DNA of 64,000 nt from contig CAVYMD010000002.1 of assembly GCA_963769555.1 (NCBI GenBank), positions 20,401 through 84,400 of the forward strand, written 5' to 3'. The notes beneath the pieces are model-generated. The model was given only the letters and a program-made list of their open reading frames with translations. It was not told where the DNA came from and made no database searches. A program made the translations under genes and the position numbers. Within the stretch, counting starts at the first letter, position 1, and each line of letters starts with the position of its first letter. Shown one piece after another: positions 49,194 through 54,085 of the stretch. This stretch comes from an uncultured Solirubrobacteraceae bacterium. Its GTDB lineage: Bacteria > Actinomycetota > Thermoleophilia > Solirubrobacterales > Solirubrobacteraceae.

Positions 49194-51422
49194 ATGAGCG
49201 CGCGCCGGACCCCTCCCGTGGCGACCGCCGACCTCGACCGGCTCGTCGCGCGCGACCACCACGACCCGCACTCGATCCTCGGCGCCCATGCGACGGAGAC
49301 CGGCGCGATCGTGCGCGCGCTGCATCCCGCGGCCGAGGCCGTCGTCGTGCTGCCCGCCGGCGTCGAGCTGCGGCGCGTGCACCCCGGCGGCGTGTTCGAG
49401 GGCGAGCTGACCGGCGTCTCGCTGCCCTACGCCTACGAGCTCGAGGTGCGCTACCCGGACGGCGGGACGTGGGTCGCGCCCGACCCGTACCGCTTCTCGC
49501 CGACCCTGTCGGACCTCGACGAGCACCTCTTCCGCGAGGGGCGCCACGAGCGGCTGTGGTCGAAGATGGGCGCCCACGTGCGCGAGGTCGACGGCGTGCC
49601 GGGCACCTCGTTCGCCGTCTGGGCCCCGGCCGCGCGGTCGGTCTCGGTCGTCGGCGACTTCAACTTCTGGGACGGCCGCCTGCACATGATGCGCGCCCTC
49701 GGCGGCTCGGGGATCTGGGAGCTGTTCGTGCCCGGCGTCGGCGCCGGCGCGCGCTACAAGTTCGAGATCCGCGCGCAGGGCGGCGAGCTGCTGCTCAAGG
49801 CCGACCCGTTCGCCTTCCAGACCGAGCTGCCGCCGCAGACGGCCTCGGTCGTGCACTCCTCCTCCTACGCGTGGGGCGACGCGGAGTACCTCGCCGCGCG
49901 CGAGTCGGGAACGCCGCTCGGCCGTCCGATGTCGGTCTACGAGGTGCACCTCGGGTCGTGGCGGCTCAACCCGCTGGAGGACAACCGGCCGCTGACCTAC
50001 CTCGAGCTCGCCGACGAGCTGGCGGCCTACGTCGCCGACCTCGGCTTCACGCACGTCGAGCTGATGCCGGTCATGGGCCACCCGTTCTCCGGCTCCTGGG
50101 GCTACCAGGTCACGTCCTACTACGCCCCGACGCCCCGCTTCGGCTCGCCCGACGACTTCCGCGCGTTCGTCGACCGCATGCACGCGCACGGCATCGGCGT
50201 GCTGCTGGACTGGGTTCCCGCGCACTTCCCGCGCGACGAGTGGGCGCTCGCGCGCTTCGACGGCACCGCGCTGTACGAGCACGAGGACCCGCGCCGGGGC
50301 GCGCACCCCGACTGGGGCACGCTCGTCTTCAACTACGGGCGCAACGAGGTTCGCAACTTCCTGCTCGCCAACGCGCTGTTCTGGGCGCGCGAGTTCCACG
50401 CCGACGGGATCCGCGTCGACGCGGTCGCCTCGATGCTCTACCTCGACTACTCGCGCAAGGCCGGCGAGTGGGTGCCCAACGAGTACGGCGGCCGCGAGGA
50501 CCTCGACGCCGTCGCCTTCCTCAAGGAGCTCAACGAGGTGCTGCACCGCGACGAGCCCGGCGTCATCAGCGCCGCCGAGGAGTCGACCGCGTGGCCGGGC
50601 GTCTCGCGGCCGACCTATCTCGGCGGGCTGGGCTTCGGCTTCAAGTGGAACATGGGCTGGATGCACGACACGCTGGGCTACTTCGAGCAGGACTCCGTCC
50701 ATCGCCGCTACCACCATCACGAGCTGACGTTCTCGCTCATGTACGCCTTCAGCGAGAACTTCATCCTGCCGCTGAGCCACGACGAGGTCGTCCACGGCAA
50801 AGGCTCGCTCATCGACAAGATGGCCGGCGACCGCTGGCAGAAGCTCGCCAACCTGCGCTGCCTGTACGCCTACATGTGGGCGCACCCCGGCAAGAAGCTG
50901 CTCTTCATGGGCCAGGAGTTCGCGCAGTCGGCGGAGTGGAGCCACGAGCGCTCGCTGGACTGGCACCTGCTCGAGCACGGCGAGAACGCCGGCGTGCAGT
51001 CGCTCGTGCGCGACCTCAACCGCGTGCTGCGCGAGACGCCGGCGCTCTACGAGGTCGACTTCGACCCCAGCGGCTTCTGGTGGGTCGAGCCCAACGACGC
51101 CGACGCCAACGTCGTCGCGTTCGCGCGCGCCGGGGCCGATCCGAGCGAGGACGTGCTCGTCTGCGTGGCGAACCTGTCGCCGGTCCCGCGGCCGGGCTAT
51201 CGCCTCGGCCTGCCGAACGCGGGCCGCTGGGTGGAGGCGCTCAACACCGACTCGGCCTTCTACGGCGGCACGGACACCGGCAGCTTCGGCGGCGTCGAGG
51301 CCGAGGCGCTGCCGTGGCACGGGCAGCCCTGCTCGGCGGAGCTGTCGCTGCCGCCGCTGGGCGTCGTCTGGCTCGTGCCGGAGCGGCGGCCCGCCGCGGC
51401 GAAGAAGGATCGAGCCGGCTAG
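49194..51422 (+). CDS. glgB: 1,4-alpha-glucan branching enzyme
   Basis: DHHDPHSILGAH N-terminus, with FAVWAPAARSVSVVGDFNFWDG, GIGVLLDWVPAHF, GIRVDAVASMLY and EESTAWPG. Confidence 0.9.
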   Translation: MSARRTPPVATADLDRLVARDHHDPHSILGAHATETGAIVRALHPAAEAVVVLPAGVELRRVHPGGVFEGELTGVSLPYAYELEVRYPDGGTWVAPDPYRFSPTLSDLDEHLFREGRHERLWSKMGAHVREVDGVPGTSFAVWAPAARSVSVVGDFNFWDGRLHMMRALGGSGIWELFVPGVGAGARYKFEIRAQGGELLLKADPFAFQTELPPQTASVVHSSSYAWGDAEYLAARESGTPLGRPMSVYEVHLGSWRLNPLEDNRPLTYLELADELAAYVADLGFTHVELMPVMGHPFSGSWGYQVTSYYAPTPRFGSPDDFRAFVDRMHAHGIGVLLDWVPAHFPRDEWALARFDGTALYEHEDPRRGAHPDWGTLVFNYGRNEVRNFLLANALFWAREFHADGIRVDAVASMLYLDYSRKAGEWVPNEYGGREDLDAVAFLKELNEVLHRDEPGVISAAEESTAWPGVSRPTYLGGLGFGFKWNMGWMHDTLGYFEQDSVHRRYHHHELTFSLMYAFSENFILPLSHDEVVHGKGSLIDKMAGDRWQKLANLRCLYAYMWAHPGKKLLFMGQEFAQSAEWSHERSLDWHLLEHGENAGVQSLVRDLNRVLRETPALYEVDFDPSGFWWVEPNDADANVVAFARAGADPSEDVLVCVANLSPVPRPGYRLGLPNAGRWVEALNTDSAFYGGTDTGSFGGVEAEALPWHGQPCSAELSLPPLGVVWLVPERRPAAAKKDRAG

Positions 51423-54085: not shown

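Follow-up and report, generated by a model that had tools for sequence, protein, structure and literature searches.

An FtsH-family protease with two AAA modules from a Solirubrobacteraceae bacterium represents a conserved multi-module family with a probable stacked-ring arrangement

FtsH is a universal membrane-bound AAA+ protease. The canonical enzyme corresponds to MEROPS M41 and to the TIGR01241 family and is exemplified by the FtsH proteins of E. coli, T. maritima and T. thermophilus, its gene typically lying in a tilS-hpt-ftsH-folE setting. To our knowledge, every FtsH structure solved shows the M41 domain arranged as a six-fold ring, which makes up the proteolytic chamber. The Cdc48/p97/VAT proteins are soluble, possess an N-domain and are not covalently joined to a protease. 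In ClpA, D1 (classic) and D2 (HCLR) belong to different clades and do not stem from a recent duplication; the peptidase of ClpAP is a separate protein, and the complex is not anchored in the membrane. In p97 the D1 module and in NSF the D2 module largely serve assembly, gating or regulatory roles. Canonical FtsH carries one AAA module per chain, and its strength as an unfoldase is still debated (PMC9601784). The D1-D2 linker of p97, 22 aa in length, is conserved and functionally important (PMC4730245), and in ClpAP the D1 ring promotes the processivity of the D2 motor (PMC7568338). [quoted passage not shown]

The gene analysed in the present study is located in a 64,000-nucleotide stretch of DNA (hereafter, the window) from an uncultured Solirubrobacteraceae bacterium. 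The encoded chain includes, in this order, the first transmembrane (TM) helix, an extracytoplasmic domain, the second TM helix, AAA module D1, a 24-residue basic linker, AAA module D2 and an M41 Zn-protease domain. The following features were assigned:

51419..54085, minus strand: double-AAA FtsH, complete coding sequence with an ATG start, 888 aa plus TAG stop
53954..54016, minus strand: TM helix 1, aa 24-44 (hydrophobicity scan; AlphaFold2 helix at aa 22-44)
53708..53953, minus strand: extracytoplasmic FtsH_ext-like domain, aa 45-126 (PF06480, 31 bits; alpha/beta fold, pLDDT 80-88)
53630..53707, minus strand: TM helix 2, aa 127-152 (hydrophobicity scan; AlphaFold2 helix at aa 130-155)
52823..53560, minus strand: AAA module D1 with its lid, aa 176-421 (Pfam, motifs, family profiles)
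52751..52822, minus strand: Arg-rich inter-module linker, aa 422-445, APERQRRLSMRDRTMGAQMLGGER (conservation; family signature)
52016..52750, minus strand: AAA module D2 with its lid, aa 446-690 (Pfam, motifs, family profiles)
51449..51997, minus strand: M41 Zn-metalloprotease domain, aa 697-879 (PF01434, E = 6.4e-47)

The Pfam search placed FtsH_ext (PF06480) at aa 24-117 and revealed two PF00004 AAA stretches (the first at aa 215-347; family E = 1.7e-88), two AAA_lid_3 stretches and a single PF01434 domain, and the hydrophobicity scan outlined two segments, approximately aa 19-44 and 127-152, as the TM helices bracketing the extracytoplasmic domain. This agrees with the preliminary description of the locus, which had read from the letters an 888-aa protein with two AAA modules followed by an M41 domain. 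Its nucleotide coordinates for both AAA modules are arithmetically right, its 270-residue module spacing is exact (270 aa, 810 nt), and every motif it quoted (Walker A and B, pore loops, second region of homology, HEAGH and the inter-module junction) lies at the position given. The whole protein scored 1001.6 bits with the TIGR01241 (FtsH_fam) model in two stretches, compared with a cut-off of 600, a total that is inflated because the second AAA module adds score. The predicted anchor, the FtsH-type AAA module (present twice), the M41 domain and the score above the family cut-off place the protein in the FtsH/M41 family, and the two full modules set it apart from canonical FtsH with its one AAA module per subunit.

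In D1, Walker A (GPPGCGKT) occupies aa 219-226, including K225, and Walker B (IVFIDEID) aa 274-281, including D278 and E279; the pore loop MYVGVG is found at aa 251-256, sensor-1 is N325, and the second region of homology (SRH) RPGRFDR, with R336 and R339, spans aa 336-342. The corresponding D2 elements are GPPGCGKT at aa 489-496 (K495), IVFIDEID at aa 544-551 (D548/E549), IFVGEG at aa 521-526, N594 and RAGRFDR at aa 605-611 (R605/R608). The HEAGH motif of the M41 domain is located at aa 709-713 (nt 51947-51961), and D785 is presumed to be the third Zn ligand. H709, E710, H713 and D785 are invariant across 72 orthologues.

Two modules lying exactly 810 nt apart with identical Walker motifs might have been produced by an error of assembly or gene calling, namely a collapsed, expanded or chimeric repeat of a gene with one AAA module in reality. 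However, the DNA sequences of the modules are only 72% identical over 702 nt and share no long identical stretch. At the protein level, BLASTP found modules 1 and 2 to be 53% identical across 259 aa (E = 3e-89), a similarity that is far above chance and yet far from that of a near-identical repeat. The reading frame is uninterrupted, and GC3 equals 0.98 along the entire ORF (51419-54085), which in a genome with 72% GC matches the expectation for a real gene. In addition, two-module orthologues of the same layout form at least 72 independent clusters with 69-78% identity and come from independent NCBI, ENA and JGI assemblies, some of them on contigs of 1.06, 1.17 and 3.78 Mb. Because the modules are divergent and the independent orthologues are many, an artefact is effectively refuted and its probability is negligible. 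Thus the 810-bp duplication, for which the preliminary description had called for confirmation, is genuine.

Among the 272 proteins retrieved, those with an M41 domain include 84 with two AAA modules, 51 with three and three with four. Such two-, three- or four-module members are encoded by Solirubrobacteraceae/Thermoleophilia, Acidimicrobiales and Chloroflexota MAGs, and Melainabacteria possess separate lineages of two-module FtsH. The relatives also include some single chains that lack M41 and carry 5-6 classical AAA modules in tandem. In nearly all family members, 270-274 aa separate one Walker A from the next. A scan of genome contigs for co-occurring paralogues and distribution was dominated by the universal Walker B pattern IVFIDEID; among the eight loci examined in detail, two were informative, namely L002, a two-module member from Acidimicrobiales, and L004, a fragment whose module is of the 'last' type. 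Many database entries for multi-module FtsH are labelled merely 'AAA family ATPase' or plain 'FtsH'. It is nearly certain that the protein belongs to a real, conserved family of internally duplicated multi-AAA FtsH. Full-text literature searches found no description of this family. The initial view of the architecture as an unrecognised one thus stands as regards published descriptions, but the protein is not a singleton and represents a large family that includes three- and four-module members. The preliminary description had also allowed that many characterised homologues might share this layout; that is not so, because no family member is characterised. The nearest precedent comes from MoxR-vWA systems, where a soluble FtsH-type protein has two AAA modules, the first of them inactive.

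The two modules arose by internal duplication. Taken alone, D1 scored 406 bits with TIGR01241, compared with 283 for PAN and 243 for CDC48, and D2 scored 385, 282 and 227 bits, respectively; both align to positions 156-405 of the TIGR01241 profile. Each module is therefore best described by the FtsH model, by more than 100 bits, which upholds the earlier suggestion of an internal duplication rather than a fusion of unrelated ATPases. At the junction ALTRILEAPERQRRLSMRDR (aa 415-434), which the preliminary description had likened to the first helix of a truncated protease domain, the inter-module homology extends through the post-lid helix, in line with that suggestion: LTRILEAPERQRRLSMRDR of one module aligns with VERATLGIARNHVLTESER of the other. 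The duplicated unit runs from the end of the linker between TM2 and AAA to the first helix past the lid. In the tree, all AAA modules of the family group together, apart from 40 sampled canonical FtsH AAA modules (bootstrap 67/100). Identity is 65-69% among first modules and 64-69% among last modules, and first and last modules are 54% identical, which equals the identity of either with canonical FtsH. First modules are accordingly orthologous to first and last to last; middle modules derive from first-like modules. The tandem AAA duplication is old, as judged by the 53% protein and 72% DNA identity between the modules.

A different origin would imply either that a foreign AAA module (Cdc48/Cpa-, PAN/ARC- or Afg2-like) was fused to the N-terminal side of a canonical FtsH or that the protein belongs to the MoxR-vWA 'FtsH ternary' group. 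The D2 pore loop, xFVGEG, does resemble the PAN/Rpt type, and single-sequence searches of the PDB put Afg2/SPATA5 D2 modules about level with FtsH AAA modules (about 303 vs 303 and 310 vs 311 bits). However, these single-sequence scores are ambiguous, the family profiles settled the matter in favour of FtsH for both modules, and a foreign origin of D1 was rejected. Moreover, the modules are closest to each other, to the exclusion of the sampled canonical FtsH, and the segments flanking the duplicated unit are of the FtsH type. As for the ternary group, MoxR-vWA systems do include a double FtsH-type AAA protein (PMC7159879), but no MoxR or vWA gene was found near the double-AAA ftsH or at the examined orthologue loci, and the N-terminal module is intact; assignment to this conflict system was ruled out by this gene context and the intact first module. 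Taken together, these other origins are very improbable.

The neighbours of the gene in the window are glgE, mak, glgB and the genes of an LVIVD-repeat protein and a BNR/CWB2 protein. No second ftsH was found within the window, and no conserved operon partner was found there or at the examined orthologue loci. A Trypsin_2 gene is located directly upstream at two orthologue loci, and an SBP_bac_5 gene is the adjacent gene at two orthologue loci and at one three-module locus; both are absent from the window. The promoter scan found no promoter-like site, and the sole hit of the terminator scan lies inside coding sequence, at chance rate.

As to the quaternary structure, we infer that a hexamer with AAA rings stacked over a protease ring is the most likely arrangement. 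Six chains would assemble via the M41 ring, as in canonical FtsH, and their twelve AAA modules would make up two coaxial hexameric rings stacked head-to-tail, so that the order going down from the membrane would be D1 ring, D2 ring, protease ring. A substrate coming from the membrane or the cytosol would be gripped in series by the pore loops of both rings and passed to the proteolytic chamber. Compared with single-ring FtsH, such an enzyme may be stronger or more processive in unfolding, as the analogy with the double rings of ClpAP suggests, and relatives with three or four modules would have additional tiers. The conserved duplicated-AAA FtsH family and the stacked-ring arrangement, taken together, are considered probable.

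Structure prediction yielded no p97-like stack. The AlphaFold2 model of the full-length protein had a pTM of 0.38 and that of D1-linker-D2 a pTM of 0.48, with linker pLDDT below 50; in the Foldseek comparison only single modules superposed on p97 (TM about 0.44, rmsd 15-19 Å), and the M41 part matched FtsH 3kds (TM 0.57). The absence of such a stack would suit a covalently linked single ring, in which D1 lies beside D2 and three two-module chains, or two three-module chains, close one ring of six alternating, specialised modules, so that the complex has just three (or two) copies of the protease domain and of the membrane anchor. The dominant module counts (two in 84 proteins, three in 51) both divide six, the M41-less relatives with 5-6 tandem modules fit the same scheme, and the pore-loop signatures split by position, with GVG in first and GEG in last modules, as alternating subunits would show. 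However, at least two lineages contain proteins with four modules and M41 (one represented by P0002/P0003, the other by P0124, encoded on a 125-kb contig), which argues against a tie between module number and the division of one six-module ring. The M41 ring is known to be six-fold, and strict conservation is seen here both in the catalytic residues and in the distance to the last AAA module (last Walker A to HExxH, 220-222 residues in the family vs 222 in canonical FtsH). The module period, too, is the same as in stacked p97.

The linker also bears on this choice. It consists of 24 residues, is rich in Arg and carries the motif APERQRRLSMRDR, which is present at each junction of two-, three- and four-module proteins; 13 of its 24 positions are invariant in 72 orthologues, and its conservation is on par with that of the ATPase cores. 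It derives from the AAA-to-protease junction, which is axial in FtsH, and such an origin, like the high conservation, speaks against placing D1 and D2 side by side. The length of the linker cannot discriminate between the ring models, since engineered single-chain ClpX rings also have linkers of about 20 residues. On balance, a single ring is quite unlikely, and the stacked arrangement is preferred. The reading as a whole, in which the Arg-rich linker is an inter-ring coupling element and three- and four-module forms have more than two ATPase tiers, is only slightly favoured. We know of no AAA+ unfoldase with more than two ATPase tiers, so that forms with three or four would set a precedent.

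Stacked rings need not contribute equally, and one of them, most likely D1 or a middle ring, might act in assembly, gating or regulation, leaving a single translocating motor. Known double-ring enzymes share the work unequally, ClpA D2 being responsible for 80-90% of ATP hydrolysis (PMC7568338). The pore-2 regions differ strongly between modules, and the pore-1 aromatic residue is lost in 10 of the 83 D2 modules of two-module proteins and kept in only 34 of the 51 middle modules of three-module proteins (17 losses); therefore, not each tier need be a gripping motor. Nevertheless, Walker A and B, sensor-1, both arginines and the aromatic pore loop are all preserved in each of the two modules, here and in the orthologues. 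All five AAA motifs are retained in 81/83 (D1) and 82/83 (D2) two-module proteins and in 50-51 of the 51 three-module proteins, and D1 and D2 are equally conserved (majority-residue frequency 0.88 vs 0.89 in 72 orthologues). Judged by motifs, which are intact here and across the family, both AAA modules are probably catalytically competent, as had been supposed, and a one-motor version of the stack is unlikely.

The enzymes of this family share their anchor and protease but differ in having one (P0159-like), two, three or four homologous motor modules; in this natural series, the effect of added AAA+ rings on grip, processivity, ATP cost and membrane-protein extraction can be tested directly. 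It also bears on type II ATPases, where rings would communicate through the linker, and suggests that double-ring AAA+ machines can emerge via simple internal duplication.

Comparison with the MoxR-vWA component reveals a common feature, two FtsH-type AAA domains per polypeptide, although the description of that component makes no mention of a membrane anchor or of M41 (PMC7159879), and its genes adjoin those of MoxR and vWA proteins. D1 is intact here (GPPGCGKT, IVFIDEID), as it is in 81 of the 83 family D1 modules.

Carrying two modules per chain with a short linker between them, the protein would also qualify as a type II AAA+ ATPase. Like Cdc48/p97/VAT, it has two tandem classical AAA modules, with a period of 270-274 residues in the family and 273 in p97 and a conserved linker of 24 residues compared with 22 in p97. 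The best Foldseek matches of D1-linker-D2 are Cdc48/p97/VAT (36% identity over about 555 columns), and the alignment with VAT is colinear across both modules in one stretch. By sequence, assignment to this family was rejected (TIGR01243, 460 bits for the whole protein and 243/227 per module vs a cut-off of 803). In contrast to these soluble, protease-less proteins, the double-AAA FtsH is membrane-anchored and carries M41, and its modelled D1-D2 orientation, with a low-confidence AlphaFold2 linker, does not reproduce that of p97. With ClpA/ClpC and ClpP it would share, by analogy, a stacked double ATPase ring feeding a proteolytic chamber, but here the modules are related by duplication, the peptidase is part of the chain and a membrane anchor is present.

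The similarity to canonical FtsH is the most extensive. The N-terminal TM1, extracytoplasmic domain and TM2 anchor are the same, as are the FtsH-type AAA module with the MYVGVG pore loop in D1, the intact HEAGH with the conserved Asp, and the distance from the last AAA module to HExxH (220 vs 222 aa); aa 441-881 align end to end with solved FtsH structures. Unlike canonical FtsH, the protein possesses two AAA modules (up to four in relatives), a linker motif with no counterpart there and a protease-proximal module with FVGEG instead of FVGVG, and its gene lies outside the tilS-hpt-ftsH-folE setting.

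The double-AAA ftsH gene lies at 51419-54085 on the minus strand. It runs from an ATG to a TAG codon over 888 aa, and GC at third positions is 0.98 over the entire ORF, which is typical of the genes of the window (~72% GC); the ORF is therefore considered real. The preliminary description of the product as an FtsH with two AAA modules was borne out by the Pfam search, and all the motifs quoted there lie at the residues given, with correct nucleotide coordinates. The Pfam domains of the protein are as follows:

aa 24-117, FtsH_ext
two stretches, AAA (PF00004)
two stretches, AAA_lid_3
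aa 697-879, after both PF00004 stretches, Peptidase_M41 (one domain)

The NCBIfam model of the FtsH family (TIGR01241) matches the protein with 1001.6 bits, split over two stretches. By all sequence criteria save the one-module architecture, the protein is an FtsH.

The second module (D2, aa 446-690) repeats the first one (D1, aa 176-421) at an offset of exactly 270 aa (810 nt). The two share 53% identity at the protein level (E = 3e-89) and 72% at the DNA level, far beyond chance. Each module alone is matched best by the TIGR01241 FtsH profile (D1, 406 bits; D2, 385 bits), followed by the profiles of PAN (283 and 282 bits) and CDC48 (243 and 227 bits), and both cover positions 156-405 of the FtsH family model. 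PDB single-sequence searches with the modules gave a tie between FtsH and Afg2/SPATA5 D2, at ~303-311 bits per stretch, so the family-profile result is the relevant one. The homology between D1 and D2 starts about a dozen residues upstream of TFDDVAG, where SGARR aligns with GAQM/GRR, and extends through the post-lid helix (LTRILEAPERQRRLSMRDR aligned with VERATLGIARNHVLTESER), which is similar to the junction into the protease domain of canonical FtsH. The profile matches and the extent of the homology support the suggested internal duplication, and they would fit a duplicated unit that extends from the linker near TM2 to the first helix behind the lid.

Near-identical copies would be expected if a tandem repeat had been collapsed or mis-joined in the assembly; this explanation was rejected because the modules have diverged in DNA sequence and many independent orthologues exist. 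Among 5.8 billion proteins searched, the two-module layout was found in dozens of full-length orthologues (848-903 aa, 69-78% identity), 71 of which can be aligned with the query over the whole length. They originate from independent NCBI, ENA and JGI assemblies, including contigs of 1.06, 1.17 and 3.78 Mb, and those with a named source belong to Solirubrobacteraceae or Thermoleophilia. Judging by these nearest named relatives, the DNA is most likely that of a Solirubrobacterales actinobacterium.

The competence proposed for both modules holds at the motif level. Two-module proteins keep the full ATPase motif set (Walker A GK[ST], Walker B DE, sensor-1 Asn and the two SRH arginines) in 81/83 of their first and 82/83 of their last modules, and three-module proteins keep it in 50-51/51 modules at every position. 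Judged by these motifs, the modules of the family are working ATPases. Retention of the pore-1 aromatic residue varies with position: 81/83 for first modules, 73/83 for last modules and only 34/51 for middle modules. The pore loop of first modules, (M/L)YVGVG, is similar to that of canonical FtsH, and protease-proximal modules carry (V/I)(F/Y/W)VGEG. Among 72 orthologues, the mean frequency of the majority residue is 0.88 in D1, 0.89 in D2, 0.76 in M41 and 0.65 in the extracytoplasmic domain; the M41 residues H709, E710, H713 and D785 are invariant.

Profiles made from D1 and D2 of the query were used to sort all of the 272 proteins retrieved into module classes. An M41 domain is combined with one AAA module in 111 proteins, with two in 84, with three in 51 and with four in three; a further four-module protein is cut off by a contig end. 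For representative relatives, the presence of three and four AAA stretches was confirmed with Pfam, and nearly all classified relatives possess the FtsH-type two-TM anchor. Named sources of three-module proteins include Acidimicrobiales, Chloroflexota, Thermoleophilaceae and Solirubrobacteraceae, and an Acidimicrobiales MAG (locus L002) also encodes a two-module member. Melainabacteria/Cyanobacteria MAGs contain separate, more distant two-module FtsH lineages. The modules compare by position as follows:

Identity between AAA modules of the two-, three- and four-module classes
first modules, one versus another: 65-69%
last modules, one versus another: 64-69%
middle versus first modules: 60-66%
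middle versus last modules: 56-59%
first versus last modules: 54%
first or last versus canonical FtsH modules: ~54%

At the sequence level, these values show positional orthology. In the neighbour-joining tree, all modules from the close family fall into a single clade, with 40 sampled canonical FtsH modules outside (67/100 bootstrap), and deeper branches are weakly supported. Together, the identities and the clade indicate that the first duplication is old and that the later tiers arose from duplicated first-like modules. A single-module FtsH of an Actinomycetota MAG (P0159, 652 aa, MEW6155527.1) has the N-terminal anchor of the multi-module family, and its AAA module is a mosaic, with 28 first-type versus 35 last-type residues at 100 discriminating sites. 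This protein may be near the pre-duplication state, or may have arisen secondarily, when D1 and D2 recombined and collapsed into one module.

Other architectures were also retrieved. Relatives P0127 (1428 aa) and P0152 (1021 aa) have the order AAA-M41-AAA-M41, with two entire FtsH cytoplasmic units per chain, a kind of duplication other than that of the query. Five or six tandem classical AAA modules without M41 are found in P0160 (2124 aa), P0228 (2055 aa), P0222, P0241 and P0252, one such member being annotated by one source as 'SpoVK/Ycf46/Vps4 family'; an entire AAA ring could be formed there from one polypeptide. A Cloacimonadota MAG (locus L071, CAZCRD010000085.1, ORF 5665-9858) encodes a 1397-aa FtsH-like protein with one full AAA module, M41 and a long C-terminal extension with a weak partial AAA match (aa 972-1083).

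The spacing of the modules is constrained. In nearly all proteins of each module-number class, successive Walker A motifs lie 270-274 aa apart; HExxH follows the last Walker A at a distance of 220-222, compared to 222 in canonical FtsH. Thirteen positions of the 24-residue linker (aa 422-445) are invariant (A422, P423, E424, Q426, R427, R428, L429, R432, D433, R434, G437, E444 and R445), and the motif RILEAPERQRRL(S/A)(M/L)R...G(R/Q)(R/Q)...E(R/K)VTFxDVAG recurs at all junctions of two-, three- and four-module proteins. Judging by this conservation, the linker is a family signature and clearly not a passive tether.

Most probably, the protein works like a type II stacked-ring AAA+ protease. 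In the best-supported model, the protein would be a hexamer that, like canonical FtsH, is held together by its M41 ring. The D2 ring would sit on the protease ring exactly like the single AAA ring of FtsH, and the D1 ring would lie beneath the membrane in a head-to-tail stack on D2. Substrates would be threaded through the D1 and D2 pores serially. In ClpAP, D2 acts as the main motor and processivity is promoted by D1 (PMC7568338); by analogy, the added ring or rings here would raise grip and processivity. The unfolding strength of single-ring canonical FtsH is debated (PMC9601784). The double ring proposed earlier would be such a stack. AlphaFold2 gave a mean pLDDT of 73.9 and pTM of 0.38 for the full-length protein and 78.5 and 0.48 for the D1-linker-D2 fragment, with linker pLDDT <50 in both. 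In Foldseek comparisons, the C-terminal half matches FtsH (TM 0.57), and the tandem modules are colinear with p97/Cdc48 at 36% identity, but with an rmsd of 15-19 Å. The main alternative is a single ring of covalently linked modules, built as a trimer of two-module or a dimer of three-module chains, which is suggested by the fact that most multi-module proteins have two or three modules. However, four-module proteins exist, the M41 domain and the spacing are conserved and the origin of the linker is axial, making such a ring improbable compared with the stacked arrangement.

The gene is located tail to tail with glgB, the two stop codons overlapping in the palindrome CTAG (51419-51422). The adjacent features are:

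44133-51422, plus strand, GlgE-pathway alpha-glucan operon, in the order glgE-(unassigned)-mak-glgB, with glgB last
44133-46097, plus strand, glgE
~1.6 kb between glgE and mak, unassigned, possibly treS-like (the ORF tried had no Pfam match)
47780-49132, plus strand, mak
49008-51422, plus strand, glgB

Upstream of ftsH, a 176-nt gap is followed by a same-strand gene for a 1185-aa LVIVD-repeat protein and then by a gene for a BNR/CWB2 cell-wall-binding protein. The region of ~1.8 kb that separates the LVIVD-repeat gene from the following called gene (57820-59600) contains long ORFs on both strands; those at 58020-59489 (minus) and 57902-59407 (plus) have no Pfam match. No second ftsH is present within the 64-kb window, and no fixed partner gene was found across the examined orthologue loci. 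A Trypsin_2 serine protease gene directly precedes the multi-AAA ftsH at loci L001 (8817-9989) and L083 (6691-7857) of other genomes, and an SBP_bac_5 solute-binding gene adjoins it at L001 (12682-14361), L082 (10694-12370) and L084 (6210-7874), that is, at two two-module loci and one three-module locus; neither gene occurs in the 64-kb window. Genes of subtilisin, BNR and RCC1-repeat secreted proteins are common around orthologue loci.

Positions 1-10000 of the window have a GC content of 0.65-0.67, versus 0.72-0.78 elsewhere, and encode a type I restriction-modification system:

416-2551, plus strand, HsdM (N6_Mtase/HsdM_N)
3780-6845, plus strand, HsdR (HSDR_N/ResIII/T1R_D3)

The lower GC and these genes indicate that the first ~10 kb is probably a horizontally acquired island.

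No solved structure with this double-AAA FtsH architecture was found in the PDB. The view that the architecture had not been described agrees with a search of the full text of ~8 million papers and preprints (some subscription journals lie outside it), where no description of a tandem-AAA FtsH protease was found; database annotation of family members reads only 'FtsH' or 'AAA family ATPase'. The Walker A period resembles that of p97, whose matching D1 and D2 residues are 273 apart (V200 and V473, chain 5c18_A), and archaeal VAT is colinear with both query modules in one HMMER stretch. The p97 D1-D2 linker, 22 residues long with a conserved N-terminal half, activates D1 (PMC4730245). The nearest precedent comes from the MoxR-vWA 'FtsH ternary' conflict systems, one component of which carries two FtsH-type AAA domains, the first of them inactive, with P-loop and Walker B lost (PMC7159879). 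The description of that component mentions neither a membrane anchor nor M41. The first module of the query is intact and its gene context differs, with no MoxR, vWA, tilS, hpt or folE gene near ftsH in the window. Most surprising within the family are the relatives with three or four modules, together with the conserved linker.
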